Shown here: positions 31,901-54,255 of the stretch, one piece after another
Numbering within the stretch: position 1 is the first letter of the stretch
Layout: each line of letters begins with the position of its first letter
Assembly (NCBI GenBank): GCA_024400835.1
Contig: JAKSMC010000011.1
Span: 572-64,571 of the forward strand
Source of the DNA: Bacteroidales bacterium
Lineage (GTDB): Bacteria; Bacteroidota; Bacteroidia; Bacteroidales; WCHB1-69
DNA: 64,000 nt
Direction: 5' to 3'
Made by a program: the position numbers and the translations under genes
Notes under the pieces: generated by a model
The model's database searches: none
The model's input: only the letters and a program-made list of their open reading frames with translations
What the model was told of the DNA's origin: nothing

Positions 31901-33078
31901 TATCTGTGGGAAATTCTTGTTGCAAAACTGTTATTCCCTTGCGGATAAATGGTGAAGTCGTAACTCCATATTGTGTCTTCGCAGAGCTTTGCCCTGAACT
32001 GAAGCTGGATGCTCTTGAACCAGATTTCTCCATAGTTGCTTAGACTCGCAACAGTGTCGTACAAAAATGCCATGTTGTTGTGCTGCAGAGGGAGGTCGTA
32101 CCATTGCGTCGTGTCGCGCTCGTCGCCTAAGGTTGGGTTGACAAAACGGTATTCGAACATAGAGATGCTGTCTTGCAAATAATAATAGTATTCGTCATTG
32201 TGATCCTCCCAATGATGGATGTTGTAAACCTCTTTGAAAGTGATGACGTTGTAACTGGTCGGGTCACCGGAACTGTTGCGGAGCAGATGGTGCTCTTTGC
32301 TGAGGTCGTGCTTGACCGTCGGCACAGTGGCAAATAAAGAAGGCATGTAGTAGCCGCAGCCGTCATGGCAGAGGAATTTGTAATTGCCGGCGGGCAGACT
32401 GTCTATGGTGAAATACTGCCTGTAATCGAAGCGCGAAGCATTGTTTCCGAAATGTTGCAAAGTGTCAAAAGTGACTGTCCGTAAGAATGCCGTGTCGCCA
32501 GGATCGCACGACCAAATGTCAATGGTATATGGGAAATTCCCATGCTGGATGCTGATTTGGACTTGCCCCGATGGATAACATTTCAAGGATGGCACAATCC
32601 CATACGGCTCCTGGAATGTGAAGATGTTGTGGAGCAGTCCACATTCGGGAATGTGGTAATCGCTGCCGACAGTTACTTCTACTGAATCAGAAACAATGGC
32701 ATACGCATCCGCTTGCCCGAGACCGGTCCTGCAAAGCGCATTCACGGTCACTCTATAGGTGCCCGGACGGAAGTGCCGCACTACGGGGTCGGAAGTCTCT
32801 ATAATAGAATCTGTTCCTGACAATGGTATGTAACTGAATCTGATTTGCTCTAACTGCGACCCGCTGGTGTCTGATAATGAGCAATGTATCTCTCCGTCAT
32901 ACTGGCAGCGCGCTGATACTGTGCTTGCCGCTAATTTGATGGAACAGCCTGACTGAGCGTATGTTGTCTTGCCTCCCATTATAAATAAAGAAATAATTGT
33001 TAAATGGTAATAAAATAAAAAAGAGAGCCCTGGAGCTCTCTTTTTTAATGTCTTCGTCTTGTGATAACTTCGATTCAT
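28906..33078 (-). CDS. Giant (~1390 aa) Cys-rich surface protein with C-terminal FISUMP domain
   Basis: Probable start MNRSYHKT... followed by a hydrophobic signal/anchor LSFLFYYHLTIISLFIMGG. C-terminus DYDGNIYHAVRIDHLCWTQSNLR...GQLYTFEAA...CPTGWYLPEEAQY...GETRFWY...IRCI. The ORF-track start at 33171 lies upstream of the promoter box. Confidence 0.75.
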   Translation of the reverse strand: MNRSYHKTKTLKKRAPGLSFLFYYHLTIISLFIMGGKTTYAQSGCSIKLAASTVSARCQYDGEIHCSLSDTSGSQLEQIRFSYIPLSGTDSIIETSDPVVRHFRPGTYRVTVNALCRTGLGQADAYAIVSDSVEVTVGSDYHIPECGLLHNIFTFQEPYGIVPSLKCYPSGQVQISIQHGNFPYTIDIWSCDPGDTAFLRTVTFDTLQHFGNNASRFDYRQYFTIDSLPAGNYKFLCHDGCGYYMPSLFATVPTVKHDLSKEHHLLRNSSGDPTSYNVITFKEVYNIHHWEDHNDEYYYYLQDSISMFEYRFVNPTLGDERDTTQWYDLPLQHNNMAFLYDTVASLSNYGEIWFKSIQLQFRAKLCEDTIWSYDFTIYPQGNNSFATRISHRYVTKEETYYDFCEYHIGEETSAFTFTGAHLSHNCTACTTTPDSTACANARNYSYSGDITSISNGMLKHSYITYPIHLKVIDLTRDSIILITTDSSLDYCWAFICLSDTTLFGDSIVFEVIDDNGCPLLSDCKYFFYPTRYEHHNAIDTYYNWETVEPQGMCSSEMHTLGMMMNHAPFHSKTLENKYIYSGDTLFLIESPRDNFYNLKAYIDRTEHYHVEKYNNANQAELLFKSYKKSIYDTFAGMIMQDYGLPSGKYKWVIHHACELPNDTIEQWVTFTEDPVLAEEPSYQFTKHCSSLEIKPIAGQFQLEGTNIETFFLIHQEDTIIHSVNSKKKGESLFIGLPGTYTLSMYALPKDDEGLINQNPCYIKDTIIQWDGGTIQADYLYSHVCNSEDSIGFVRARGKNGLLPYTYTIYGSINGEGDVMAQNTVGDFDNLPIHYGQALSIEMSDACGAHFLTNFTVSDMSRIRKGWAENDLNEVSICEGATCHFYGISLGGVTYHWTGPNGFERNDQNPEIFIPRGSETAGIYHVELLGTGCTPLSDSIQLDVIGAPSVHLAQDTTVCPGTEMTLQSTAYGTGLITYTIMRADSAAVPIRVLSNRPSGVTDSTHSLIMHDPTIFYVTEIRDERCSFLIPEDTVRVSFISAEERAELICTNDTICKGEASVLTAKSTSVAPYVLRWQTGSEVLRRDTIFDKDEVSRYYFETLSRDTLLYVVAESAFRCPYRPSRIEQDSLLRTAVVVVHENRRVDTTIRQAVHEEELPYWWNGELYYEPDSTTLTFGRAHGCDSTVTFILSIIPEAPCPDAIDYDGNIYHAVRIDHLCWTQSNLRSEHYSDGRAIDDVMSYYSDLFPNTAENVEIFGQLYTFEAATDTGRAGQLTPQGHIQGICPTGWYLPEEAQYVRLGMHDISELRSPNYWLTGGGNNATGFSALPAGFFNGQNNRFENLLGETRFWYNSAASSTLFSPTFIINRHCDKDIKSISSKENGHSIRCILEE

Positions 33079-33160
33079 TTGGGGTAAATATTTGATTTGT
33101 ATTATAGTGTGATAAAATAGTGTCTCGCCGAATCGTATCTTTCTTATATTAATTCGGCGG

Positions 33161-33168
33161 CAAAAATA
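33161..33168 (-). promoter_or_regulatory. Bacteroidota -7 box upstream of the second FISUMP gene
   Basis: The minus strand reads TATTTTTG, ~83 nt upstream of the ATG at 33078. Confidence 0.4.
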
Positions 33169-33239
33169 CAAAAAATATTTAATAATAAATCGAATTTGTA
33201 GAAAATATTAACTAATATTTAATCTTTAACATTTGTTTG

Positions 33240-42742: not shown

Positions 42743-42861
42743 AGTAAATCAAAACGGGCAAAGATAGTAAAAAAATCCAATTCTGGGAAATGGAATAAAA
42801 TTGCCCACGTTACAATGGTTCTATTTCACGTGTGATAGAAAATTCATAAGTATTAGAGCTA

Positions 42862-42992
42862 TTGTTGTCAATTGGATTTTGGAACTTGGAGTTTGGATTT
42901 TCTTTACTGTTTATTCTCAATTCGGTAAGCGGGTGCGAAGATAGGATTTTATTGGACAGGGGGGCTGCCAGAATTGCGGGGACATATACCAA
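42862..42992 (-). repeat. Cassette leader repeat L1, a cassette-less terminal copy abutting bamD
   Basis: The minus strand reads ...aaaatCCTATCTTCGCACCCGCTTaCCGAATTGAGAATAAACAGTAAAGAAAAtCCAAACtCCAAGTTCCAAAATCCAATTGACAAC..., then diverges. No RHS core follows. Confidence 0.8.
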
Positions 42993-42993
42993 A

Positions 42994-43461
42994 TCATTCG
43001 GAACAAGTCTTTTTTAAAACTTGATAATATGTATTAGTCATTCCTACTATTAAAAAATTATAATCTCCACCATAAAAAGGAGGAGGTGTCTTTAAGCAAA
43101 TAAAACTCGAAGAACCTGGAATAATAGTTAGAATTTTGTCAGGAACATTTTTAGGGAAAAGATAATATTTCCCATTAATTTTTTTATAACATCCGATATT
43201 TTGAATTATTTCATCATCAATAATAAGCGGTTTTATTTCTATGAAAAAATTATTTTTAGAAAAATCTGATAGAAACATATCAACTATAAAGAATTCATAT
43301 GGCGCATTTTTGAAACAATTATTTGTTGAAATCCCATATATGATTTTTTCAAGTTTACGGTCAATAAAATTCATTTCTGGAAGTACTGTGTACTTTTTTT
43401 CTTGTGCCATAGTATTTCCAATAGAAAGAATAAACAAAATAAAAAAATAGATTTTCTTCAT
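42994..43461 (-). CDS. Putative secreted immunity protein of cassette m4
   Basis: Overlaps the toxin stop by 4 nt. Signal peptide MKKIYFFILFILSIGNTMAQ. No recognisable domain. Confidence 0.55.
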   Translation of the reverse strand: MKKIYFFILFILSIGNTMAQEKKYTVLPEMNFIDRKLEKIIYGISTNNCFKNAPYEFFIVDMFLSDFSKNNFFIEIKPLIIDDEIIQNIGCYKKINGKYYLFPKNVPDKILTIIPGSSSFICLKTPPPFYGGDYNFLIVGMTNTYYQVLKKTCSE

Positions 43462-44360
43462 TGTTTTTTACTTATTATAACACTCCTACACATAAAATAT
43501 GAAAAATCACTTGGTAATGAATTCTGATTGTATTTAATATATTTCCCGTTTTTGGGAGTGTATATTTTAAAGAATGGCTGCCCTCCTCCATTTTTATTCG
43601 ATATTTTACAAAGATATTTGGCGACTGCAATATCTCCTCCAGGACTGGTAAGACCAGAAGGATACGGTGTATTGTTGGGGTGATTATGGATGCTGCCTCT
43701 AATAGTGTAACCGTACTTATATTTATTCTCTATCAGAAAGGTTGCGGCTTGATTCCGATCAATCTCATGAGAGGTAGAAATAACATTTAATCCATTTTCT
43801 CCAGATTCCCCTAAAAGTAATTGTGCCCACTCCACATTCGTGTTGTCAGAAAGAAATTCAAACAATTCCGATGCATTATTATCTCCTCGAACATTATACC
43901 AATCAAATTTTTTGTGGGCATTATCGGAATACTGGGACTTGAATTGTTCTATAGTCTGATATTTAAATGACAATTCTTTACCTTCTATTCTATTCCCATT
44001 TTTATCGACAATATAAAAAGCATCATGTTGATCTGTTTGAATATGATTTACAACTTTTCCCCAACGATTGATTTCCCACTCATCCTCCCCATTGGGATCA
44101 ACCACCATTATCGGATTATTACTACAATAAACATAGTTCGACTCATGGGGGCATTTGTCACTCATGGGATCCACACTAAGCCAAATGCTCAGGTCGCTGC
44201 TATAATACCTTGCGCCAAAATAGCTTAGCCCGGTTTCCGTGTCGCGCTCTTTTGCCGAAAAGGAGTAATTTAGGGTATAGGTAACAGGTAATAGGGAATA
44301 GGTGGCGGCGGAGGGCGCTGCTACGGAGGTGGGGCGATATGTACAGGCTGTTATTCTCAA
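43458..44360 (-). CDS. Orphan RHS-core-tail + JAB/JAMM-like metallopeptidase toxin module (m4)
   Basis: FSAKERDTETGLSYFGARYYSSDLSIWLSVDPMSDK...NNPIMVVDPNG followed by a tail with TSHE...GSIHNHPNNTPYPSGLTSPGGD (E, HxH, S, D). There is no in-frame ATG before the core; the ORF-track start is TTG. Confidence 0.6.
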   Translation of the reverse strand: MRITACTYRPTSVAAPSAATYSLLPVTYTLNYSFSAKERDTETGLSYFGARYYSSDLSIWLSVDPMSDKCPHESNYVYCSNNPIMVVDPNGEDEWEINRWGKVVNHIQTDQHDAFYIVDKNGNRIEGKELSFKYQTIEQFKSQYSDNAHKKFDWYNVRGDNNASELFEFLSDNTNVEWAQLLLGESGENGLNVISTSHEIDRNQAATFLIENKYKYGYTIRGSIHNHPNNTPYPSGLTSPGGDIAVAKYLCKISNKNGGGQPFFKIYTPKNGKYIKYNQNSLPSDFSYFMCRSVIISKKQ

Positions 44361-44425
44361 TTGTCAATTATCAATTCGGGAAGCGGGTGCGAAGAAAGGA
44401 AATTATTGGTAATAGTCTCCAATAT
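44341..44425 (-). repeat. Cassette leader repeat L2 (short subtype)
   Basis: The minus strand reads ccaataatttCCTtTCTTCGCACCCGCTTcCCGAATTGAtAATTGAcAATTGAGAATAACAG. It lacks the ~57-bp CCAAACCCCAAG...GACAACGAC block. Confidence 0.75.
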
Positions 44426-44440
44426 TTGAATTTCAAGAAA

Positions 44441-45073
44441 TCACCATGCTACGCACCAAAAAATGACATATTCATTGTTGGGATTAATAGCAACTCCAGA
44501 CCGATATCCGTGCCGTAAATGTGCTGGAAGCCATTGACGCTCGCAATTCCATTTGTCATTTAGCACCAGAGTGTTCCCCGATTTGATAACATAGATTGTA
44601 TAATCCGAGGACAAGCCTGTATTCGTCGTTGAATCAACAAACACACTATCTGATTTATTATCATCTAGTCTGTGGAATATTTTGAAATCGGGTATTATTG
44701 TGTTGATTTGTGCGTTAATATAACTGGAATCCAATTGAAATCTTTTATCAAAATCTCGGTCTTTCAAAATCACAAGTTCTGAAGAATCGTTCAATATTTG
44801 GATGGCATTATTTTCAGAAAATGTTTTTATGAATTCCACATCAAAATATTTTTTTGAGACGACTTTAATATATCTACAACAATTTGTGGGATTAGTGCAT
44901 CGTTCCGAGAGGTCAGACGGTATTAGCATAAAAGCACCTACTTCATTTGTCGGAAAAAAATAACAAATACTATCAGGAATCGGGTTTACATCAAAATGCA
45001 GTAAACACCTATTGTGAGATTGCGAACTGGCTGTAAGATTTACTAAAATAAGAAGCAAACAAGAAAATTTCAT
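44441..45073 (-). CDS. Extra orphan immunity-like secreted protein with no cognate toxin ORF
   Basis: Signal peptide MKFSCLLLILVNLTASSQS. It lies between the m3 immunity gene and leader L2. No domain recognised. Confidence 0.45.
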   Translation of the reverse strand: MKFSCLLLILVNLTASSQSHNRCLLHFDVNPIPDSICYFFPTNEVGAFMLIPSDLSERCTNPTNCCRYIKVVSKKYFDVEFIKTFSENNAIQILNDSSELVILKDRDFDKRFQLDSSYINAQINTIIPDFKIFHRLDDNKSDSVFVDSTTNTGLSSDYTIYVIKSGNTLVLNDKWNCERQWLPAHLRHGYRSGVAINPNNEYVIFWCVAW

Positions 45074-45264
45074 AATAACAAAACTACAATTAATACATCA
45101 GTTTAAGCGATTAGAGCATTTTACTAATAGTTTCTATTATATTAGGCATAGTCTGCTTCATTATATTCCTAAATTTCGCAGAGTTACTATTAGAGTATTC
45201 ATATTGTCTTATTTCATTCCATGTTGTTTTTCTAATAAGAGATTAAGAACAAGACATCATTGTT

Positions 45265-45726
45265 CTATTGGAAAATTTTACATAATTGTCCGATAGGGTC
45301 TTGCCCATTTTCTGATATAGTATCGGATGCAATAATTTCAGAGGATTGCAAATGGCCTTTTTTGGCCGCAATTAACAAATATTTTATAGCCAACTGTGCT
45401 GTCATAGAGTCTATTTGTCTAATGTCTGACAAATACGGAACGGTTAAACAGTCAAAAACATCAAAGTATGCTTGTGCGTAATCATACTTGTTGGCCATTA
45501 TCCATGCATATGATAATAATTCTTCATCACCGTATTCATAGTCCATTAGCAGAATTGAAAGGTCATCATAGGCGGAAGTGTCACCTGTCTCTACTATTTG
45601 CCGCTTTAGTTGAGATATGCTTTTTGTGGAACATTCCATAGGGTAGATCGTTTTGTCATCATACTTACAAGAATAAAACAAAATTGAAGTAGATATGATG
45701 ATACTGAAATAGATGTATTTTTTCAT
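45265..45726 (-). CDS. Putative immunity lipoprotein of cassette m3, helical and possibly Sel1/TPR-like
   Basis: 20 nt after the toxin stop. Lipobox ILFYSC. Helical repeat-like LAIKYLLIAAKKGHLQS. Confidence 0.5.
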   Translation of the reverse strand: MKKYIYFSIIISTSILFYSCKYDDKTIYPMECSTKSISQLKRQIVETGDTSAYDDLSILLMDYEYGDEELLSYAWIMANKYDYAQAYFDVFDCLTVPYLSDIRQIDSMTAQLAIKYLLIAAKKGHLQSSEIIASDTISENGQDPIGQLCKIFQ

Positions 45727-45745
45727 ATAACAATATTAAAATTAA

Positions 45746-46570
45746 TTAGTACAATAGTCTATCTAATACTGTAGGCTTTTCTTTGGGGCTCCAGTTCCCC
45801 TTAAAAGATTTCACTTCTTTCCCATTACGAAAAACCTTCCAATTCCCTGTGACGTTTGATCTCTCTTTGCTTTTAATATTACCATTATCATCTCTTTTAT
45901 ACTCATTGTCGCTGTCAGCATATTTAGCTTTATAGGTCCCTACTTGCCCCTCCTCATTAAAATACACTCTTTGGTCAGGTGCGACAACAGTAACATTTAA
46001 CTCTTTTGATACTTTTTCTGCAAAAGAATTGTCTCCTTCGCCAGTTCTACAAGAATGCAAGATGATAGTTGTTGCATCGTTTTCCTGTCTATTCTTCCAT
46101 ACATTGCTATATTTTGACAATAATTTTTCTAACTGCTGGGCTGTTCTCACTTGTTGCTTCCTACCATCAATGGTTACGATTAAACCTTTTGAAGATCCAT
46201 GCGCGAATATATGAATAGCACCGTCATCATTGTATTTTTCAGCTCCTGAAATAATTGCTTTGTCTTTATTCTTATCTAACCATATTAGTTTTTCTTCACC
46301 ATTGGGATCAATGAACTTCACCGGGTTGTCCGCGCAATAAACATACGCACACATCGACGGGTACTTGTCACTCATCGGGTCCACGCTCAACCAGATGCTC
46401 AGGTCACTGCTGTAATATCTTGCTCCAAAGTACGATAGCCCGGTTTCCGCGTCGCGTTCCTTGGCCGAAAAGGCGTAATTTAGGGAATAGGTAACAGGGT
46501 ATAGGGAATAGGTGGCGGCGGCGGGCGCTGCTGAGACGGTGGGGCGATATGTGCGGACTGTTATTCTCAA
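45746..46570 (-). CDS. Orphan RHS-core-tail + toxin with candidate His/Cys dyad (m3)
   Basis: Core FSAKERDAETGLSYFGARYYSSDLSIWLSVDPMSDKYPS...FIDPNG. Tail with AIHIFAHGS (46192-46217) and IILHSCRTG (46041-46066). No in-frame ATG before the core. Confidence 0.55.
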   Translation of the reverse strand: MRITVRTYRPTVSAAPAAATYSLYPVTYSLNYAFSAKERDAETGLSYFGARYYSSDLSIWLSVDPMSDKYPSMCAYVYCADNPVKFIDPNGEEKLIWLDKNKDKAIISGAEKYNDDGAIHIFAHGSSKGLIVTIDGRKQQVRTAQQLEKLLSKYSNVWKNRQENDATTIILHSCRTGEGDNSFAEKVSKELNVTVVAPDQRVYFNEEGQVGTYKAKYADSDNEYKRDDNGNIKSKERSNVTGNWKVFRNGKEVKSFKGNWSPKEKPTVLDRLLY

Positions 46571-46655
46571 TTCTCAATTCGGAAAAGCGGGTGCGAAGAT
46601 AGGAAATTATTAGATAGGGTTACTGTTCGAATTATGGGGACCATTGTAATAAATA
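46561..46655 (-). repeat. Cassette leader repeat L3 (short subtype)
   Basis: The minus strand reads aatggtccccataattcgaacag...taataatttCCTATCTTCGCACCCGCTTTTCCGAATTGAGAATTGAGAATAACAG. Confidence 0.8.
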
Positions 46656-46689
46656 TGTACTACATAACATAGTGTTTTAATCTGAAAAT

Positions 46690-47292
46690 TTATGGAAAGA
46701 ATGTTTTATATTTTACAATCTTATTGAATTTGTTTTTCTTGACCGGCATCTCTAATTTGAGTGCAGAATCTATAAGGCTATTCAACACGTTTGTGTCTCC
46801 TGGAGCTGCGTGTGTATATCCTACAACAAGATATTCAAACCCCCAAAAGCCAGCTCCTGTCACTGGATCCGGTTTCTCCAGATCATACCTCATACAATAT
46901 TTCCACAACGATGTATCACCACCTTTTTCATATATTCGGCCTTGCTTGTGAGATGAGATCGGCATTCCTTTTTTCAAGGAATCCTGTGCCTTTAATAGAT
47001 TGTTGTAAACTGGTCCAAAACAACAAACCGAGTCCCCATAGGCAGGACTCTCATCACTTATGTAAAAATAAGCATTGTTGTATGAAAAATAATAACTCGT
47101 AGAGCTTCCAATTATTAAATATTCTAATTTGCAATGTGGAGGTAACTTTACAAGATAAACAGGCGAAAAATATTCGGGCTTGTATAAAAAAGAGTCAAAT
47201 GCTCGATTTGTAGTGAGTCTCTTGATATGGCAACCATTTAGAATTACCATACAGCTAATTAGAACAATCAATAAGACCTTGTTAGAACTCAT
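46690..47292 (-). CDS. Putative immunity lipoprotein of cassette m2
   Basis: The ATG at 47292 overlaps the toxin stop by 11 nt. MSSNKVLLIVLISCMVILNGC lipobox. Confidence 0.55.
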   Translation of the reverse strand: MSSNKVLLIVLISCMVILNGCHIKRLTTNRAFDSFLYKPEYFSPVYLVKLPPHCKLEYLIIGSSTSYYFSYNNAYFYISDESPAYGDSVCCFGPVYNNLLKAQDSLKKGMPISSHKQGRIYEKGGDTSLWKYCMRYDLEKPDPVTGAGFWGFEYLVVGYTHAAPGDTNVLNSLIDSALKLEMPVKKNKFNKIVKYKTFFP

Positions 47293-48181
47293 AACTTTTG
47301 ATGTTAAAAGGTAAATACGGAACTCCATTTTGCAGCAAGGAAGAGGAACCTCCTCCCAAGAAATGCCCTTCTGAGGATGTCTGAAGCGAATAGTATGTCC
47401 GATATGGTAGTCCTAGCTCTTTTCTTATAAGGTTCTCTCTATAACAAGCAACCCATTCGCTTTTTTTAAGACCACCGTTCCATGTTGATTGATCCGTCCA
47501 TCCCCGTTCATCATCAAAAGCATGCGATAGCTCATGAGCTAAATCAATTGTCCCATTTGCTTCGCCAAAGGGTGATCCGGCAACTGGTAATCTTGTTCCA
47601 AATCTATTCCAAGTGATGGTGTTAGGTTCTTTTCTTTCGTAGCCACTTGCTCCTGCTCTGATCGTATATTGGGTTTCGGAATCTTGCAGATTGGTAATCA
47701 TTCGTTTTCCTTCTGTTGTTTTATTTATTTTATTCAACGATTTTCGAGCTCTCTCTACAAAACGATTCCGTTGACGATCACTAAGTGGATTCCCGTTCAC
47801 TAATGTTAAAGAGCCGTTTGGTTCGTATCTATATACGGAATTTTTCCACTCAATCAAGATCTCTTCCCCGTTAGGATCCACCAACTTCACCGGGTTGTTC
47901 GCGCAGTAAACATACGGACTCAGCGAAGGGTATTTGTCACTCATCGGGTCCACACTCAGCCAGATGCTCAGGTCGCTGCTGTAGTACCTTGCGCCAAAGT
48001 AGCTTAGCCCGGTTTCCACGTCGCGCTCTTTAGCCGAAAAGGCGAAATTCTCTGCAAAGTGAAGAGCGAAGAGGGAATAGTGAATAGTGGCTGGTGATGG
48101 CATGGCGTTAGGGGTTATGTTTTGGGGTGTGGTCTGCGGAGGCACATGATAGGAAAATTTCACATTATCATCTTCTCTCAA
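47282..48181 (-). CDS. Orphan RHS-core-tail + HExxH zinc-metallopeptidase toxin module (m2)
   Basis: Core FSAKERDVETGLSYFGARYYSSDLSIWLSVDPMSDKYPSLSPYVYCANNPVKLVDPNG. Tail with DLAHELSHAFD (47521-47545). An in-frame ATG exists at 48103; the ORF-track start at 48181 is TTG. Confidence 0.65.
   Translation of the reverse strand: MREDDNVKFSYHVPPQTTPQNITPNAMPSPATIHYSLFALHFAENFAFSAKERDVETGLSYFGARYYSSDLSIWLSVDPMSDKYPSLSPYVYCANNPVKLVDPNGEEILIEWKNSVYRYEPNGSLTLVNGNPLSDRQRNRFVERARKSLNKINKTTEGKRMITNLQDSETQYTIRAGASGYERKEPNTITWNRFGTRLPVAGSPFGEANGTIDLAHELSHAFDDERGWTDQSTWNGGLKKSEWVACYRENLIRKELGLPYRTYYSLQTSSEGHFLGGGSSSLLQNGVPYLPFNIKSYEF
48120..48181 (-). repeat. Cassette leader repeat L4, a variant that resembles L8
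   Basis: The minus strand reads aaAATTGAGAGAagatgataatGTGAAaTTTTCCTATCatgtGCCTCCGCA. Compare L8: AATTGAGAGAg...GTGAAtTTTTCCTATCTTCGCCTCCGCA. Confidence 0.6.
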
Positions 48182-48696
48182 TTTTGGACATCATATATTG
48201 ATTTGATTCTTTTTAATGCTTTACGACGGTTACCCATAGATTTATCATATTGAATCATTTTTACTACACCATTTCCACTCCAATCCACGTAGTAGTTCGT
48301 TTTTGATTTGTTAAATGTAGTGATATTGATTAGAACATCACCACTTAATAGAACATATTTCCAAAGGCTGATGTCAAAATAATATGTGGTTTTATAGAGG
48401 TTCCGTTGAGAATCTCTTTTAGAATCAGAATGGAATACGGTGTATCCAAGGCATATGTGTATAACTGCTGTGTCTGGTAATTCTATTAATGTGTTCATAC
48501 AGAAGTTTTCTATTCTAAAAGCACCTCTCAAATATGTGAACTCCAGAGTGTCTATGCCCGACACTGTTGCGGTCACGCTCAATTGTCGCGGTAGTGTTCC
48601 GTCAATCGCTATTATTGCTGGAATCACAGTTTGAGCACCAAGTATATTACAGAATAGCAATATTGGGAATATTAGCATCTTCCTTATAATTTTCAT
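48178..48696 (-). CDS. Putative secreted immunity protein of cassette m1
   Basis: 20 nt after the toxin stop. Signal peptide MKIIRKMLIFPILLFCNILGAQ. Confidence 0.55.
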   Translation of the reverse strand: MKIIRKMLIFPILLFCNILGAQTVIPAIIAIDGTLPRQLSVTATVSGIDTLEFTYLRGAFRIENFCMNTLIELPDTAVIHICLGYTVFHSDSKRDSQRNLYKTTYYFDISLWKYVLLSGDVLINITTFNKSKTNYYVDWSGNGVVKMIQYDKSMGNRRKALKRIKSIYDVQN

Positions 48697-48715
48697 TTCT
48701 CGCTATATGATAGGT

Positions 48716-49552
48716 TTACTTAATTATTCGACTAATATTTCTTAATTCATCAATTTTAATAGAACCTTTAATATTAGATTTTGAATCATAAAAAACAGCA
48801 TATGGAGTTCGTTCAATTGTGCCATCTTTTCCTACAATAACATTGATGAAATAATTTTTAAAAAGTGCTTCGTCGTATATTGATTGTTTATCAGGAACCT
48901 GATAACATTTTCTTCCTTCATCATCAGGACATTCAAACATATCTAATCTATGAGAATGAATACTGATATAGCCTTTTGAATCAATATCAATTGTTCCATC
49001 TTCGAAACCTGTAGGGTATCTTTTAAACAACAATGGGCGTCCTTTTTCTGAAAAAGTTGAAGCTTCTTCTCTACTGCCACCATTTAAAACAGTTCTATCA
49101 TAAACATTTACGATTTCACCCAATTGAAACTTATTTGTACTCCAATCTACCGTTACATCCGATAAGTTTGTTTGTTTTCCGTTGTTTCTCTCCAGTTTCT
49201 TTATACTTTCTTCATCAGAAACGAAATATACATTCCAATCATCATTTCCATCATCGCCTAACAATTTGCCATCCCAATCGTGAAATTCTCCAATTTCCAT
49301 CCCCTCAGGATCCACCAACTTCACCGGGTTATCCGCGCAATACGTGTACGGGCTCAAACTCGGATATTTGTCACTCATCGGATCGACACTCATCCAAATA
49401 CTCAAATCCGAGGAGTAATATCTTGCCCCAAAATATGATAGCCCTGTTTCCGCATCGCGCTCTTTTGCCGAAAAGGCGAAAGTTAGGGTATAGGGATTAG
49501 GGTATAGGGGATAGGAATCAGAGGGGCAATATGTTGGTTTGGTCGTTGTCAA
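48716..49552 (-). CDS. Orphan RHS-core-tail + C-terminal toxin of unassigned family (m1)
   Basis: (TTG)TTTKPTYCP... FSAKERDAETGLSYFGARYYSSDLSIWMSVDPMSDKYPSLSPYTYCADNPVKLVDPEG, then a ~195-aa tail. No in-frame ATG before the core. Confidence 0.55.
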   Translation of the reverse strand: MTTTKPTYCPSDSYPLYPNPYTLTFAFSAKERDAETGLSYFGARYYSSDLSIWMSVDPMSDKYPSLSPYTYCADNPVKLVDPEGMEIGEFHDWDGKLLGDDGNDDWNVYFVSDEESIKKLERNNGKQTNLSDVTVDWSTNKFQLGEIVNVYDRTVLNGGSREEASTFSEKGRPLLFKRYPTGFEDGTIDIDSKGYISIHSHRLDMFECPDDEGRKCYQVPDKQSIYDEALFKNYFINVIVGKDGTIERTPYAVFYDSKSNIKGSIKIDELRNISRIIK

Positions 49553-49690
49553 TTGGATTTTGGAACTTGGGGTTTGGAATTTCTTTACTGTTTATTCTCA
49601 ATTCGGAAAAGCGGGTGCGAAGATAGGATTTTTTTGGATAGCGGTGCTGTCGGAATTTTTGGGACCATTATAGTATAAATAGGATGAAAA
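49541..49690 (-). repeat. Cassette leader repeat L5 (long subtype), first unit of the minus array
   Basis: The minus strand reads aatggtcccaaaaattccgacagcaccgctatccaaaaaaatCCTATCTTCGCACCCGCTTTTCCGAATTGAGAATAAACAGTAAAGAAATTCCAAACCCCAAGTTCCAAAATCCAATTGACAACGACcAAACC. Confidence 0.8.
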
Positions 49691-49838
49691 AGCATCAAAA
49701 ACGGTCATTAGCTGCGGTCGTGTTCCATTTCCGGCACGCCAAACACCTTTCAAGCGGTTGATTTTATGTGGTTTGCAAAATAAAACAAAAAAATGCTGGC
49801 GCAGTAATGGCGCGACAGCAGAGATAAAAATAATTGTC

Positions 49839-49846
49839 TATCTTTG
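49839..49846 (+). promoter_or_regulatory. Consensus -7 box inside leader-like sequence L6, ahead of cassette p1
   Basis: tcTATCTTTGccccgc, 20 nt upstream of the ATG at 49866. It is related to the CCTATCTTCGCACCCGC leader block. Confidence 0.55.
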
Positions 49847-49865
49847 CCCCGCAAAACAAACAGGT

Positions 49866-50708
49866 ATGAATCAAGGTTTTACGCTCACATCTTCCACAAC
49901 ATTTTTCTCTTTTGCAGAGATTTACGCCTTCTCGGCCAAGGAGCGCGACGTGGAGACCGGGCTAAGCTACTTTGGCGCAAGGTATTATAGTAGTGATTTG
50001 AGCATCTGGCTGAGCGTGGACCCAATGAGTGACAAGTATCCGAGTATGAGTCCGTATGTGTATTGCGCGGACAACCCGGTGAAGTTGGTGGATCCTAACG
50101 GGGAAGACTATGAAGTTGTAGTGGATTACAAGACAATGACAATAACAATTCACGCAAATTTCTATACGTTGAAAAATGAGAAATGTTTTTTAGAAGAGGG
50201 ACTTAAACATTGGACTAATGAAGATGGGCACTTTGTTTATACGATTGGAAACGGAGAAAACACCCAAACTTACGACATAAAATTTGAATTTGACATTATT
50301 TCATGTAGTACCATAACCGAGATGTATGGTAAAGCAGAAGCAGACAAATGTGGGAATTCTTTTCTTATTAAAGATGGTGTTTACAATAACGGAACGGTTC
50401 CCATAAGAGGCGGATATGACTCAGGCAAAATTGAGATCAACAGCGATATGACTCTTTACTGCATAGACGACATGCTTCACGCCTCTGCTCACGAGCCTGG
50501 CCATTCGATGGGCATAGGAGAATTTGGGAAAGGATTAATGGAGTCAGGAGGATGGTGCTATGACATTTATGAAACACAAATTGCTTCTTCATTAAAATAT
50601 GCAGGATTCAATTGTATAAATGACAATATGACTTTCCCTGATAGACCATGCAATGTTTCCGTTAAAGGTAAGATGCCACAAGGAGAAGGTGTGGTGAAGA
50701 AAAAATAA
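49866..50708 (+). CDS. Orphan RHS-core-tail + HExxH zinc-metallopeptidase toxin module (p1)
   Basis: MNQGFTLTSSTTFFSFAEIYAFSAKERDVETGLSYFGARYYSSDLSIWLSVDPMSDKYPSMSPYVYCADNPVKLVDPNG. Tail with SAHEPGHSMG (50481-50513). Canonical ATG start. Confidence 0.7.
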   Translation: MNQGFTLTSSTTFFSFAEIYAFSAKERDVETGLSYFGARYYSSDLSIWLSVDPMSDKYPSMSPYVYCADNPVKLVDPNGEDYEVVVDYKTMTITIHANFYTLKNEKCFLEEGLKHWTNEDGHFVYTIGNGENTQTYDIKFEFDIISCSTITEMYGKAEADKCGNSFLIKDGVYNNGTVPIRGGYDSGKIEINSDMTLYCIDDMLHASAHEPGHSMGIGEFGKGLMESGGWCYDIYETQIASSLKYAGFNCINDNMTFPDRPCNVSVKGKMPQGEGVVKKK

Positions 50709-50750
50709 GATCGAAGATTGTTTTTTTGAGTTTTTAAATATCCATATTCT

Positions 50751-51386
50751 ATGAAACGATTTCTTTTGACTTTTTTATTGTTGTTTTCAACATCGTTCCT
50801 AATACAGGGACAGTCGTTAGCTCCCAACGACGGTGAAAGAATTTTTGTTTATGGAATCCGATATTTCACGGATCCCATTTTCGTAGGCCCATATCGTTGT
50901 CCCAGAAGATGTGTTATGGAAAAACAATATTTGGCGGACCAAGAAACAGACAAAGACTGTGATTACTATTTGAATTTGTGGGCATATCAGCCTGAGCAGT
51001 ATGGTATATTGGAAAATGGTCCTTTCATAAAAAATGTTTTGTTGCCTCAAATTTCAGATTCAACAATAATTAAAATCCTTTGGGAACAATTTGATTCGAC
51101 TGGCAAATTGAAATACGAAATCAACGACTTTCTTTTAAAACCCGATAAACCGTATAAAAATCTTTATTATTGTGATGTGTCCTGCCATCGTTTTTTGGCA
51201 ATTTTAGTTCCTGAAGAAGTCTTAATTAAGAATAGTCGATGGCAGGAAGATTCATCTCCTCAAAAAGAACGATTAAAACATTGGGGACTATATCTAAAAT
51301 GCCTTATTCCATTGCCTTATGGAGAGATAATTGATACTGAGTCTAGTACACAAAAAAACACCACTCCAACTAATAAATACAACTAA
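50751..51386 (+). CDS. Putative secreted immunity protein of cassette p1
   Basis: 43 nt after the toxin stop. Signal peptide MKRFLLTFLLLFSTSFLIQGQ. Confidence 0.55.
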   Translation: MKRFLLTFLLLFSTSFLIQGQSLAPNDGERIFVYGIRYFTDPIFVGPYRCPRRCVMEKQYLADQETDKDCDYYLNLWAYQPEQYGILENGPFIKNVLLPQISDSTIIKILWEQFDSTGKLKYEINDFLLKPDKPYKNLYYCDVSCHRFLAILVPEEVLIKNSRWQEDSSPQKERLKHWGLYLKCLIPLPYGEIIDTESSTQKNTTPTNKYN

Positions 51387-51404
51387 ACTCTTTCTTTAAT
51401 ACTC

Positions 51405-51482
51405 ACCCACAACCTTACCTATCACCCTAATAAAGAAATTCCAAAATCCAAATTGACAACGACTAAACCAACATATTGCCCC
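51405..51482 (+). repeat. Cassette leader repeat L7, degenerate on its 5' side
   Basis: ccttaCCTATCaCCCtaaTAAAGAAATTCCAAAATCCAAATTGACAACGACTAAACCAACATATTGCCCC. Confidence 0.7.
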
Positions 51483-52304
51483 GCCGCCACCTATTCCTTA
51501 AATTTCGCCTTTTCGGCAAAGGAGCGCGACGCGGAAACCGGGTTATCGTATTTTGGTTCAAGATATTATTCTTCTGAACTGAGTGTATGGTTGAGCGTGG
51601 ACCCGATGAGTGGGAAATATCCGTCAACTTCACCTTACGCATATTGCAGAAATAACCCAATAATCCTTTACGATCCTAATGGAATGTGTGACGATTGGAT
51701 CGAAAATCTGGAAACCGGAGGGATTGAGTGGAGACAAGATGTGCACAACGCTGAACAAACCCCAGATGGATATAAATATATTGGTCCAACCTATGAGTTG
51801 CCTAATGGGGCAGGATCTTTAATAAATGTCAAATATGATACTGGAGGGAACAGACAATTACCACCGAATCAACAAGAGTCCGCATCACCTGAGATTAACA
51901 TAGAGTTTGCCCCTAATTCGTCTGAAAATTATCAATGGTTACAAACGTACTCCACCAATTTTTTTTGTCATACTGGTAATGCAACAAATTTTGATTTAGT
52001 CGAAGACACATATACGGAACATGTTGATTGTGGCACACAAAGTACAAATCCTATTGAAGCATGTTATTTTAACCCGAATAATCCGCTTGTGCTATCAGAT
52101 ATTCCATTACGATACGCAGGAGTTGACAAAACAGTAGGAATGCATTTCACATCATCCGTAGTGAACCCTGAGACTCACACATCGATTGTTTCTATATCTT
52201 GGGGATTTTCCATTAATCCTTCAGGTTATGTTACTTTTGATAATTTACAAATAACAACAATTCCAAGCGAATTTCATAACAAAGCAATACAGAATGCCCA
52301 ATAA
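51453..52304 (+). CDS. Orphan RHS-core-tail + C-terminal toxin of unknown family (p2)
   Basis: (TTG)TTTKPTYCPAATYSLNFAFSAKERDAETGLSYFGSRYYSSELSVWLSVDPMSGKYPS...LYDPNG, then DDWIENLETGGIEW and a ~200-aa tail. No in-frame ATG before the core. Confidence 0.55.
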   Translation: MTTTKPTYCPAATYSLNFAFSAKERDAETGLSYFGSRYYSSELSVWLSVDPMSGKYPSTSPYAYCRNNPIILYDPNGMCDDWIENLETGGIEWRQDVHNAEQTPDGYKYIGPTYELPNGAGSLINVKYDTGGNRQLPPNQQESASPEINIEFAPNSSENYQWLQTYSTNFFCHTGNATNFDLVEDTYTEHVDCGTQSTNPIEACYFNPNNPLVLSDIPLRYAGVDKTVGMHFTSSVVNPETHTSIVSISWGFSINPSGYVTFDNLQITTIPSEFHNKAIQNAQ

Positions 52305-52806
52305 TACGTATAGATTTATTTTCTTGATTATTTGTAGTATATTTATTGTCAACACAACATATGCACAAAATAGGACAATCTATTTCGGCTATCCATATCA
52401 TATTTCTGAATTTGCCGATTCTTCTAAATTAATAATAGACAAACTACCATGGCACCCCAATGGCAGACTAGATGTGAACATGTCTATGATATATTTCAAT
52501 CAGTTAAAAGATTTTTTAGAAGACAAACGAGAGTATAAATGTACTATTCATGTATATTCGTGGATAGGACAAGATATCGAACGAAACTACCGTTTCTCGT
52601 GTTTTCAAGCAAGCGCCATAAAGGAGTTTTTTTTAGAGTGGGATTCTCTATTTTTCAATCAATACGTACTGAATATTATTCCACATGGCAGTGGTTTCTC
52701 GTTGTTTTCAAATATATGCCAATCAAAGAATCTAACAATCTCAGACTGTCTTGCAATGAAAGAATGCGTTATCATTGAACTTATCAAGTCTGAATATAGT
52801 TATTGA
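52294..52806 (+). CDS. Putative secreted immunity protein of cassette p2
   Basis: Overlaps the toxin stop by 11 nt. Signal peptide MPNNTYRFIFLIICSIFIVNTTYAQ. Confidence 0.55.
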   Translation: MPNNTYRFIFLIICSIFIVNTTYAQNRTIYFGYPYHISEFADSSKLIIDKLPWHPNGRLDVNMSMIYFNQLKDFLEDKREYKCTIHVYSWIGQDIERNYRFSCFQASAIKEFFLEWDSLFFNQYVLNIIPHGSGFSLFSNICQSKNLTISDCLAMKECVIIELIKSEYSY

Positions 52807-52860
52807 TTCCTCTATATGTAATGTGCCAAACAATTGAGAGAGAAAAAAACATTTGTGTGA

Positions 52861-52953
52861 ATTTTTCCTATCTTCGCCTCCGCATCACAAACGAAATCCA
52901 AAGTTCAAAATTCAAAATCCAAATTGACAACGACTAAACCAACATATTACCCA
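52861..52953 (+). repeat. Cassette leader repeat L8
   Basis: atttttCCTATCTTCGCCTCCGCAtcacaaacgaAATCCAAAGTTCAAAATTCAAAATCCAAATTGACAACGACTAAACCAACATATTaCCC. Confidence 0.75.
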
Positions 52954-53784
52954 AACACTGTCCGTTCACTGTTCACAGCTCACAGTTCACTGGCCGCCCG
53001 TTTCGCCTTTTCGGCTAAAGAGCGCGACACGGAGACAGGGCTAAGCTACTTTGGCGCAAGGTACTACAGCAGCGACCTGAGCATCTGGCTGGCTGTTGAC
53101 CCGATGAGTGGGAAATATCCGTCTTTGAGTCCGTATGTGTATTGCGCGGATAACCCGGTGAAGTTGGTGGATCCTAACGGGGAAGATTGGTTCGAGAATG
53201 AGTTAACTGGTGATGTCTATTATTGCAAAGATTACAGGAAAGGTGATGAAAAAGAGTTGAGCGGTAAAGGATGGAAATGGCTTGGCGAGAACAATATGTT
53301 TGGAAAGTCGGCAGATAATGTGATTGCCGCCAATATAAACAAAGCGGATGTATATACAGAAGATAATTCCTATGGCAGAGTTGGGTTTAGTGGCGCAAAT
53401 GCTAAGGAATTCATGTCAAAGATGGGGTATAAAAATGTTCCGACTCAAGTAATAGAATATGAGAAATCAAACATGCAAAGGACATGGACACCTGCAGGAA
53501 CACTATCTGTTGACATTGGCGGTTCATTTCAAATTATTGAAAAGGTTGGATATGTGAATAAGGATTTCAATGAGGTAAGTCGTAAACAAGTTGGCAGTAG
53601 TGTTCATTCAACAAGAAATGAATGCATTGAATCAGTTTCCAGACAAAGAATAGAATATGGAAAATCTTATTCCAAAATTGGTGATTTCTTAAATACTGTA
53701 TTTGGTGGTAATGTTAGTATGAAGAAAGCTGGGCCATGCACTCCTAATTGGAGATTAATTAACGAGTTTAAAAAAAGGAAGTAA
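52924..53784 (+). CDS. Orphan RHS-core-tail + C-terminal toxin of unknown family (p3)
   Basis: (TTG)TTTKPTYYP...FAFSAKERDTETGLSYFGARYYSSDLSIWLAVDPMSGKYPSLSPYVYCADNPVKLVDPNG, then EDWFENELTGDVYY and a ~200-aa tail. No in-frame ATG before the core. Confidence 0.55.
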   Translation: MTTTKPTYYPNTVRSLFTAHSSLAARFAFSAKERDTETGLSYFGARYYSSDLSIWLAVDPMSGKYPSLSPYVYCADNPVKLVDPNGEDWFENELTGDVYYCKDYRKGDEKELSGKGWKWLGENNMFGKSADNVIAANINKADVYTEDNSYGRVGFSGANAKEFMSKMGYKNVPTQVIEYEKSNMQRTWTPAGTLSVDIGGSFQIIEKVGYVNKDFNEVSRKQVGSSVHSTRNECIESVSRQRIEYGKSYSKIGDFLNTVFGGNVSMKKAGPCTPNWRLINEFKKRK

Positions 53785-53787
53785 AAA

Positions 53788-54024
53788 ATGGCAAAAGAAT
53801 ATAAAGGTGGGCATTATGTGTTTTTTGAATATATCGGTCTTTATATTCGATATTTTCTTTGTAAACTATTTAGACATGATAAAACATTGTCAGAATTATC
53901 AGGAGAGAAAGATTATCCGAATATAGATAAACGAGAGCGAATCATTTGCCTTCTTGTCGGAATATTCGCAATAGCCTTTCTGCTTTTGCTTGTTGTTGGA
54001 ATTGGCCATTACTATTCATATTAA
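53788..54024 (+). CDS. Putative small membrane immunity protein of cassette p3
   Basis: Starts 4 nt after the toxin stop. 78 aa with a C-terminal TM helix IICLLVGIFAIAFLLLLVVGIG. Confidence 0.45.
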   Translation: MAKEYKGGHYVFFEYIGLYIRYFLCKLFRHDKTLSELSGEKDYPNIDKRERIICLLVGIFAIAFLLLLVVGIGHYYSY

Positions 54025-54045
54025 TTAGTAATTCTTTTGAACTTC

Positions 54046-54188
54046 AATATTTTTCCTATCTTCGCACCCGCTTTTTCGAATTGAGAATTGAATAATTGAC
54101 AATTGAGAATAACAGCCCGTAAAGAAAATTCCAAACCCCAAGTTCCAAAATCCAATTGACAACGACTAAACCAACATATTGCCCCCAA
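54046..54188 (+). repeat. Cassette leader repeat L9, a cassette-less terminal copy abutting the MBOAT gene
   Basis: atttttCCTATCTTCGCACCCGCTTTTTCGAATTGAGAATTGAATAATTGACAATTGAGAATAACAGCCCGTAAAGAAAATTCCAAACCCCAAGTTCCAAAATCCAATTGACAACGACTAAACCAACATATTGCCCCC. No RHS core follows. Confidence 0.8.
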
Positions 54189-54255
54189 AGCTCTTCACTC
54201 TTAGCTCTTAACTCTTCGTTCGAGAGTTTTTTACCTATAGGAACAAGGAACGCGA

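Follow-up and report, generated by a model that had tools for sequence, protein, structure and literature searches.

In Proteobacteria, orphan rhs cassettes are usually portrayed as silent passengers that trail a full-length gene, and the rAID-1 arrays of Bacteroidales reportedly consist of orphan immunity genes with at most toxin remnants. Here, we analyzed an island of seven orphan RHS-core toxin cassettes that lies in a 64,000-nucleotide (nt) stretch of DNA from Bacteroidales bacterium (NCBI GenBank assembly GCA_024400835.1, contig JAKSMC010000011.1, positions 572 to 64,571 of the forward strand; this whole stretch is termed the window herein, and coordinates are counted from its first nucleotide). 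The island likely represents an allele, devoid of shell and recombinase, of a type of locus conserved across a clade of herbivore-gut Bacteroidales, serving as an immunity bank and a toxin reservoir. Like the orphan rhs-CT/rhsI modules of Enterobacteriaceae (Poole et al., 2011, PMC3150448; Koskiniemi et al., 2014, PMC3967940), its cassettes are arranged in arrays and combine a 5′-truncated core, a polymorphic C-terminal toxin, and an adjacent immunity-type gene, with the core offering the homology for a recombination that puts an orphan toxin on a full-length gene. Unlike those modules, the arrays of the island are double and divergent, the cassettes have a conserved non-shell leader with a Bacteroidetes promoter-like box, and the orphans examined break from shell homology at the same position. 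Also unlike them, the window has no full-length rhs gene upstream, although the conspecific contig L145 has it at this locus (L-numbers denote the related loci and contigs that were compared with the window), and the parent locus contains a tyrosine recombinase, an accessory protein with a type IX secretion system (T9SS) tail, and an RHS protein of ∼3,000 amino acids (aa) of the SpvB/TcdB type, with no type VI secretion system (T6SS) genes found.

Two further systems are similar in part. With rAID-1 (Ross et al., bioRxiv 10.1101/471110; PMC12247911), the island shares low-GC arrays of short co-oriented genes, repetitive intergenic sequence, linkage to a XerC/D-like tyrosine recombinase (for the island, in relatives only), and a presumed immunity-bank function. 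In rAID-1, the arrays consist of orphan immunity genes and the recombinase is 5′ and co-directional, whereas the units of the island keep intact RHS-core toxins, the window has no recombinase, and the recombinase of relatives heads a full-length RHS operon that is transcribed away from the head array. The full-length proteins of relatives resemble the Tc-toxin BC/SpvB-TcdB-RHS cocoon proteins, having SpvB, TcdB_toxin_midN, FG-GAP, and RHS_repeat domains together with a core end of the window type; unlike the Tc-toxin BC proteins, the window has no shell, and the targets are presumably bacterial envelopes. No published description of an Rhs-recombinase-T9SS-tailed architecture with promoter-headed divergent arrays was found, in a literature coverage that was incomplete and is no proof of novelty.

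The island and its cassettes (C1 to C7) are located as follows.

42797 to 54255, no strand assigned: the whole strain-variable island, between bamD and the MBOAT gene; GC content 0.371, compared to ∼0.50 in the flanks
43458 to 44360, minus strand: C1, TTG-started leader (LRIT..TYRPT), RHS core at 44095-44268, JAB-like tail; TIGR03696 score of 62 bits
45746 to 46570, minus strand: C2, TTG-started leader, RHS core at 46305-46478, tail with a weak DUF4347-like match
47282 to 48181, minus strand: C3, leader, RHS core at 47867-48047, Peptidase_M91 tail with an HELSH motif
48716 to 49552, minus strand: C4, TTG-started leader (LTTTKPTYCP), RHS core at 49301-49481, JAMM/MPN-like tail
49866 to 50708, plus strand: C5, type-A head, ATG-started (MNQGFTLTSS..AEIYAFSAKERD), RHS core at 49922-50102, HExxH-containing tail
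51453 to 52304, plus strand: C6, TTG-started leader (LTTTKPTYCP), RHS core at 51503-51680, tail without an assigned fold
52924 to 53784, plus strand: C7, TTG-started leader (LTTTKPTYYP), RHS core at 53001-53181, tail without an assigned fold

All seven open reading frames (ORFs) of the original prediction, four on the minus and three on the plus strand, are present and intact, and the cassettes belong to the orphan Rhs kind. Their assignment to the RHS core was upheld by a hidden Markov model search, in which all seven matched TIGR03696 (Rhs_assc_core) with 62 to 67 bits (cut-off, 32.5); the matches span only profile positions 13/16 to 75/76 of 76, indicating that the core is truncated at its 5′ end. 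A protein alignment of the seven revealed an invariant block of ∼58 aa (FSAKERD..ETGLSYFG.RYYSS.LS.W..VDPMS.K.P...Y.YC..NP....DP.G) followed by tails that cannot be aligned, and the predicted DPxG...DPxG end was found as a conserved VDPMS...DP(N/E)G. At the DNA level, the cores are 67 to 91% identical to each other, with exact runs of up to 54 nt, and the open frame upstream of them comprises 34 to 82 codons. The AT-rich block that had been noticed next to bamD was likewise borne out by a composition count (GC content of 0.371 for the island compared to 0.503 and 0.511 for the flanks; 0.44 to 0.55 for the cores, 0.31 to 0.40 for the tails, and 0.25 to 0.36 for the small ORFs that follow the toxins).

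Among the tails (termed T1 to T7 for the respective cassettes), that of C1 is a Pfam Toxin-JAB1 domain (E value of 6e-25) and that of C3 a Peptidase_M91 domain (1.8e-13), while those of C2 and C5 gave weak matches to DUF4347 (3.6e-4, below the cut-off) and Peptidase_M57 (0.015), respectively. In an alignment of 37 sequences of the C4 family, residues E162, H199, H201, and D227 are invariant, which corresponds to a JAMM-like E..HxH..D signature. An AlphaFold (AF2) model of C4 has a tail with a predicted local distance difference test (pLDDT) score of ∼90 and a leader and core with scores of 41 to 50; the top matches of this model in a Foldseek search against the PDB were MPN domains with nonsignificant E values of ≥0.07, lending weak support to the motif-based assignment. 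No signal peptide, T9SS tail, or other delivery domain was found in the toxin ORFs by inspection of the N termini and by Pfam. An exact look-up returned no record for C4, and for C5 only that of the source assembly.

The shell, a PAAR/VgrG domain, and a recombinase are all missing from the window, as had been predicted. A tblastn search of the 64 kb with two RHS shells yielded only noise at an E value of ≤10, a search for tyrosine-recombinase homologues gave no match in the window, and neither a PAAR/VgrG domain nor a T6SS gene is present in the cassettes or in the window ORFs that were scanned or annotated on conspecific contigs. A T6SS Rhs effector was rejected as a candidate, with no PAAR/VgrG-linked N terminus or T6SS neighbor found in the cassettes or window ORFs checked. 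Beyond the seven, no further FSAKERD core was found in the 64 kb, and the other large window ORFs are housekeeping or T9SS-cargo genes, as scanned or as annotated on conspecific contigs.

The center of the island, where the two arms diverge, points to what has been lost. Two elements meet there.

49669 to 49865, plus strand: type-A head spacer/promoter; conserved, with an exact −7 box TATCTTTG at 49839-49846, 19 nt before the ATG
49553 to 49668, minus strand: upstream element of C4; unstructured and A-rich, with the box TATCTTCG at 49625-49618

The spacer is 85% identical to positions 8150-8347 of L019, a locus from the closest related metagenome-assembled genome (MAG; BamD is 80% and CoaBC 89% identical), and 89 to 92% identical to L175 and L176. 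In L019, it has a type-A head on one side and, on the other, a tyrosine recombinase of 373 aa in divergent orientation (Pfam Phage_integrase, E value of 1.8e-18); downstream of the recombinase, a protein of 526 aa that bears a T9SS sorting tail is followed by the RHS shell. The similarity of the window to L019, L175, and L176 ends at 49667-49669, which in L019 is 85 nt short of the recombinase ATG, and the leader element of C4 stands directly next to this point. The order of a head that is divergent from a recombinase, followed by a DUF8202/Por_Secre_tail protein and an RHS protein, is intact in L019, L039/L090, L175, and L017 (to the contig end), and the recombinase-DUF8202-RHS operon alone was found in L008/L085, L172-174, L102, L133, and L105. 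Wherever the contig covers it, a protein of 520 to 543 aa with DUF8202 and a T9SS sorting domain is located between the recombinase and the full-length RHS (L019, 5332-6912; L175, 1536-3167; L172, 1623-3185), which hints at a T9SS-linked rather than a T6SS presentation or delivery route of this RHS family. Besides a signal or membrane anchor, the full-length RHS proteins have YD repeats and a region similar to SpvB/TcdB (one related protein has the Pfam annotations SpvB, TcdB_toxin_midN, and DUF6443 and no PAAR) and end with ...CYWYHPDHLGSSSWIT...HLHYLPWGE(D/E)FV(D/N)QR.......(Y/F)(T/A)FSAKERD. The orphans examined leave this homology 3 to 5 residues ahead of FSAKERD and continue into one of a few recurrent leaders.

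Similar decay was observed at other divergence points. Only aa 1-157, 1-230, or 1-237 of the recombinase remain in L004, L052, and L068, where the shell is partial or gone, and the recombinase of L063 has an internal deletion. The mirror-image pair of arrays had been called unusual, a claim that did not survive the comparison: all five mixed-orientation arrays, the window included, are divergent (L004, − − + + +; L052, − − − + + + +; L068, − − + + + +; L038, − +), none of the five is convergent, the first plus-arm cassette is always an ATG-started type A, and in four of the five (the exception is L038) the divergence point consists of the remains of a recombinase-DUF8202-RHS operon. The window is the apparent end state of the decay of such a locus, in which the head C5 and the spacer were kept and the operon was lost. 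A comparison of two type-A heads from one MAG (L032 and L039/L090) was set aside, having yielded only core-level similarity.

Conspecific strains, defined as contigs with a BamD that is 100% identical and with flank DNA that is 98.8 to 99.8% identical, show further states of this locus. In L146 and L154, the island is absent, and a T9SS-tailed protein of >1,000 aa (L146, 2-3064; L154, 1-2925) ends ∼313 nt from bamD; since this protein, and not MBOAT, stands beside bamD, the locus is also a breakpoint of a larger strain-level rearrangement. In L145 (flank DNA 98.8% identical) and, judged by its core allele, in L147, which comes from another sample, an RHS shell is in frame with the C4 toxin at the bamD locus. 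The shell of L145 contains the YD-repeat sequence ...CYWYHPDHLGSSSWIT...HLHYLPWGEDFVDQR..., shares 53% identity with L066 over 417 aa, and is cut off by the end of the contig; after the fusion to T4 follow I4 (the small ORF downstream of C4), a leader and core of the C3 type, another M91-like toxin, a Sel1-like ORF of 153 aa, the left array terminus described below, and bamD. Related sequences in which these ORFs are contiguous with a YD-repeat shell at this locus had been named as a refutation of the original prediction, and L145 shows just such a shell, fused in frame to the C4 toxin.

The comparison of the window with L145 also locates the exchange. Core 4 is only ∼83% identical between them (synonymous divergence dS, ∼0.93), the adjoining segment 49326-48048, comprising the last 30 nt of core 4, T4, I4, and leader 3, is ∼99.5% identical (6 mismatches in 1,280 nt), and core 3 is again ∼83% identical, with unrelated toxins beyond it. 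A near-identical toxin-immunity-leader module between diverged cores, on a shell in one strain and behind an orphan leader in the other, is direct evidence that the cores are the sites at which recombination exchanges toxin-immunity modules. The crossovers are found at the edges of core 4 and core 3, in the most conserved runs of the core, with no common motif evident by eye, which favors homologous recombination over a site-specific mechanism, possibly helped by a recombinase. On the plus arm, the unit of C7, its small ORF I7, the right array terminus, and MBOAT is repeated in at least seven assemblies with 95 to 98% identity, while the cassettes upstream of C7 vary; strain breakpoints there (52894 or 53001-53006) coincide with cassette edges.

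These strain states and the decay in relatives make it likely that the island, rather than being a new self-contained system, arose by decay from a type of locus that recurs in the clade; the arrays had originally been taken as free-standing (L145 has the shell, and relatives retain remnants of the operon). In an intact locus, one arm consists of the tyrosine recombinase, the T9SS-tailed DUF8202 protein, and the ∼3,000-aa SpvB/TcB-like RHS, followed by orphan cassettes; the other arm diverges from the ∼200-nt spacer and begins with a type-A head with a Bacteroidetes promoter and an ATG of its own, behind which are more cassettes. In each cassette, a promoter-like leader precedes the final ∼60 aa of the RHS core, to which a toxin domain and then an immunity-type protein with an export signal are added. 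The ∼180-bp cores act as portable homology, and recombination in them swaps modules between the shell-linked expression site and the orphan arrays as well as between strains, as the mosaic of the window and L145 shows. Having lost the recombinase, the DUF8202 gene, and the shell, the window presumably could not load or deliver its seven toxin tips from this locus. The leader boxes might serve as promoters that transcribe the immunity genes and, incidentally, the toxin ORFs; eight exported immunity proteins would protect the cell against relatives that deploy envelope-acting toxins, and the island could donate toxin-immunity modules to any full-length rhs gene whose core matches, be it at another site of the genome or in other members of the population. 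The original functional suggestion of a toxin/immunity reservoir or defense island stays the best one.

The window alone is a more modest result, a degenerate allele of a known kind of system. Together with its relatives, it indicates that a large and little-studied group of Bacteroidales of the herbivore gut shares a recurrent, ordered locus of a recombinase, a T9SS-tailed protein, a 3,000-aa Tc-like RHS, and promoter-headed divergent arrays. At a single locus, strains differ in whether a module is on the shell or behind an orphan leader, whether the shell is lost, and whether the island is absent, with crossovers at core edges, giving a population-level picture of how an Rhs arsenal may be re-armed and decay into immunity banks. 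Testable parts are the recombinase, the promoter in the leader, and the immunity proteins, whose export implies periplasm-acting JAB and metallopeptidase toxins.

Four points weigh against this interpretation. The central junction (49481-49930) is present in the window only, with no independent contig spanning it; five of the seven toxin ORFs have TTG as the only start codon and a −7 box that is one base off the consensus (TATCTTCG); in the source genome, the search for a full-length rhs gene covered the 64-kb window; and a role of the recombinase in the exchange is conceivable, in which case an account by plain homologous recombination would be incomplete. The first of these points bears on an assembly artefact, in which the true locus has a recombinase-DUF8202-RHS shell and a false shell-less join arose when the assembler skipped from one repeated core or leader to another or combined sequences of different strains. 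T4 is linked to a shell at this locus in L145 and, judged by its core allele, in L147, the short-read contigs of the population break at cores (a look-up of I5, the small ORF behind C5, gave only contigs of ≤1.4 kb that do so), and the source appears to be a very large assembly, probably a metagenome. The core 4 allele of the window, however, is only ∼83% identical to the shell-linked core of L145 and L147, so that the join of leader, core 4, and T4 is no splice of L145-type sequence, and the fusion of an LTTTxPTY leader to a core recurs in the unrelated assemblies L028, L033, L045, and L077. In addition, the repeats are 67 to 95% identical over ≤∼200 nt, with exact runs among cores of ≤54 nt, which offers little for a graph collapse; similar decay at divergence points is present in assemblies of other species (L004, L052, and L068), and the outer junctions of the island are reproduced. 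We therefore consider an artefact quite unlikely.

The last of the four points leads to a doubtful, though not far-fetched, alternative in which the locus type is a recombinase-run cassette system between an integron and a shufflon, and the window is a fossil switch that was frozen by the loss of recombinase and shell. The recombinase would catalyze or stimulate the exchange, for example, by an inversion between inverted cores, and thereby equip the shell with another toxin; the toxin-immunity pair that it displaces would come to lie downstream of the type-A promoter, where its immunity gene would stay expressed and siblings would remain immune to the toxins of the lineage. The T9SS-tailed DUF8202 protein would imply a T6SS-independent, T9SS-linked presentation of a Tc-like RHS cocoon. 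With regard to a shufflon, inverted cores are present in the window and the recombinase of relatives is located between the two arms; a search for the same cassette on opposite arms in different strains, the sign of an inversion, gave none, and the variable cassettes contain different toxins. An integron was rejected, as the window has no integrase and the inter-cassette elements are not attC-like (fold z scores of +0.1 to +1.0 on both strands compared to shuffles).

The small ORFs of the island are located as follows.

42994 to 43461, minus strand: I1, 155 aa, signal-peptide-like N terminus; no Pfam match
44441 to 45073, minus strand: I1b, 210 aa, signal peptide; between I2 and the C1 leader, without its own toxin
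45265 to 45726, minus strand: I2, 153 aa, lipoprotein-like N terminus
46690 to 47328, minus strand: I3, 212 aa, lipoprotein-like signal
48178 to 48696, minus strand: I4, 172 aa, signal peptide
50751 to 51386, plus strand: I5, 211 aa, signal peptide
52294 to 52806, plus strand: I6, 170 aa, signal peptide
53788 to 54024, plus strand: I7, 78 aa, C-terminal transmembrane segment

A small ORF had been predicted after each of the seven toxins; every toxin does have one, but the total is eight, with the ORF at 44441-45073 as the extra one. This ORF, I1b, has a homologue (59% identical) that follows a toxin cassette in L013 (7269-7901) and looks like the remnant of a cassette with a deleted toxin. The pairs T3/I3, T4/I4, T5/I5, and T7/I7 co-occur in other genomes: I3 homologues stand behind T3-like toxins in L005 and L065, I4 is co-inherited with T4 in L004, L005, L009, and L068 and is one substitution apart from its copy in L145, an I5 homologue (51% identical) is behind a T5 homologue in L028, and the exact I7 protein is beside C7 on 23 contigs. 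None of the small ORFs matched a known immunity family in Pfam. Six or seven of the eight open with K/R and a hydrophobic stretch of the signal-peptide or lipoprotein type, suggesting that the immunity-type proteins are exported and that the toxins of the island, therefore, most likely act on the cell envelope. In L083 (RUG125, 5043-5399), an isolated ORF of 118 aa with 36% identity to I6, including the signal peptide, was observed ∼4.6 kb upstream of bamD; without a toxin, it is a candidate scattered orphan immunity gene.

The small ORFs could also be all that matters, as in a defense island purely of the rAID-1 type, in which the array only expresses orphan immunity genes and the toxin parts are inert and decaying. 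The island has some of the hallmarks by which rAID-1 was defined (at least two co-directional genes with a GC content of ≤41% and repetitive intergenic sequence; bioRxiv 10.1101/471110), with ≤41% GC over most of its length and short co-oriented genes, a tyrosine recombinase is beside homologous arrays in relatives, and I1b has no toxin. All seven toxin ORFs are intact, however, and purifying selection acts on the only one for which it was measurable: the T7 tail has a dN/dS (ratio of nonsynonymous to synonymous rates) of 0.07 compared to L163, with 15 synonymous and 5 nonsynonymous changes, which shows that an orphan toxin is still selected. Moreover, rAID-1 is defined by immunity genes and not by toxin-immunity pairs, the window lacks the recombinase, which in relatives is transcribed away from the head array and in the direction of the full-length RHS, and the T4-I4 module demonstrably moves onto a shell. 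This alternative is very unlikely. The decay of Rhs arsenals into immunity banks may be the route by which rAID-like defense arrays arise.

The leaders were analyzed with regard to expression. A repeated A-rich noncoding element precedes the cassettes and contains a box TATCTT(C/T)G, followed by the leader. The −7 consensus of Bacteroidetes is TAnnTTTG, from which this box is one base off or to which it is an exact match. The element of C4 is given above, and that of C2 is as follows.

46571 to 46660, minus strand: upstream element of C2; −7-box-like TATCTTCG, repeat families D5 and D7

As single-stranded DNA, the C4 element folds no better than shuffles (z score of +0.96). The ORF coordinates start with TTG in six of the seven cassettes and with ATG (49866) in C5 alone; C3 has an in-frame ATG 21 codons ahead of the core, and the remaining five have only TTG. 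C5 carries the type-A leader, whose consensus is MNQ..T....AE..(Y/F)(T/A)FSAKE(R/K)D, and 16 of 18 type-A heads have an exact TAnnTTTG box ∼20 nt before the ATG, inside a conserved upstream region. Among 134 orphan cores, 52 have a TAnnTTTG box within 300 nt upstream, compared to 10.6% of random 300-nt segments, and 109 leaders (81%) contain an in-frame ATG, a weak enrichment over the ∼66% expected by chance at the median leader length of 68 codons. A scan for sigma-70 promoters and terminators, which performed no better than shuffles, as expected for Bacteroidetes, was replaced by the TAnnTTTG scan.

Leaders with candidate promoters raise the possibility that the cassettes are self-sufficient weapons or addiction modules, in which a leader-core-toxin protein of ∼280 aa is made from its own promoter without a shell and acts as an effector secreted by another route or as part of a pair like a type II toxin-antitoxin (TA) system. 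The conserved promoter and ATG before type-A heads, the in-frame ATG in 109 of 134 orphan leaders, the intact toxin ORFs, and the purifying selection on the T7 tail are compatible with this, as are 3,718 proteins of similar length at an E value of ≤1e-10, from a database search that returned only near-query lengths. A precedent comes from Salmonella, where an orphan Rhs reportedly acts as a TA module (PMC7043789). On the other hand, the toxin ORFs have no signal peptide, T9SS tail, or delivery domain, exported partners could not neutralize a cytoplasmic toxin, the leader and core are predicted to be disordered on their own (pLDDT of 41 to 50), the enrichment of in-frame ATG codons is weak, and the T4 module is on a shell in L145, which together render self-sufficiency unlikely.

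Two observations concern further leader motifs. About 45 nt upstream of the type-A −7 box, a conserved GC-rich motif, CTGGCGCAGTA(A/T)TGGCGC, was found (window, 49795-49815; L019, 8277-8297). In other heads, it takes the form GATGGCGCAAA.AT(A/G)(A/G)CC and thereby matches another TAnnTTTG-like box in reverse complement. The motif might be a promoter for the divergent recombinase or a protein-binding site. Many orphan leaders elsewhere translate to recurrent GC-rich strings (PHTYGVRVCPCAAFATEPCRPTAC, PPFRHTP..SRPRHTATVWRN, and SYRALAPGGAGFCYRICTGTSES) that are present in none of the window cassettes and appear to be conserved noncoding elements upstream of the cores.

How common such arrays are was estimated from a scan of 185,579 species-representative genomes, in which 370 stretches encode a core of the window type, nearly all of them in Bacteroidales bacterium MAGs (rumen, yak, sheep, buffalo, and horse gut). 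In 75 loci that were fetched, a six-frame scan detected 163 cores, 141 of which have a closed upstream frame with a median leader of 68 codons; few of the closed-frame cores belong to full-length proteins (L066, 3,055 aa; L067, 3,112 aa). The ratio of short to full-length forms was taken from six-frame scans because protein searches with core queries gave only query-length matches (≤151 aa for an 86-aa query and ≤470 aa for a 278-aa query) and missed existing 3,000-aa proteins with the same core. A shell-less, free-standing array had been regarded as unusual; in this clade, shell-less arrays are the majority, and orphan cassettes downstream of a full-length rhs gene were found in the relatives L021 and L067. 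The affiliation with Prevotella that had been assumed was not supported either, as the close relatives are Bacteroidales bacterium MAGs from the rumen or horse gut and nothing points to Prevotella. Window-type cassettes were also observed on short contigs binned as Betaproteobacteria, Clostridia, Lachnospiraceae, and Butyrivibrio (L010, L036, L044, and L058), most likely reflecting contamination of the bins and not horizontal transfer.

The edges of the island are marked by two gene-less array termini.

42864 to 42990, minus strand: Lrem, left array terminus; leader/promoter-like element and first cassette codons, gene-less
54040 to 54250, plus strand: Rrem, right array terminus; upstream element, LTTTKPTYCP leader, and degenerate core start up to the MBOAT stop

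On the left, similarity to the island-less conspecific contigs L146 and L154 ends at 42796, and on the right, the MBOAT stop codon is at 54256. Lrem is 95% identical to 49545-49609 (repeat family D8) and is kept beside bamD in L145, L147, and L149 and partly in L150 and L151. Rrem takes part in two repeat matches of 98% each (repeats I12 and I17, not small ORFs), and its junction was found again in at least seven independent assemblies; both outer junctions recur many times in other assemblies. The island had been proposed to interrupt two conserved operons, of which one stands: the order bamD-rpoZ-coaBC-x-recN is conserved in five relatives, but MBOAT is within 10 kb upstream of bamD in none of the five. 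Rfam (E value of ≤1) and tRNA scans of the island or window were empty, indicating that no known RNA element or tRNA integration site is involved. Elsewhere in the window, a T9SS cargo protein (Peptidase_C10 with a Por_Secre_tail) and two large Fib_succ_major-domain proteins are encoded (13-2538, 2611-4755, and 28906-33171), suggesting that the organism has a T9SS and looks like a fiber-associated gut member of the Bacteroidales.

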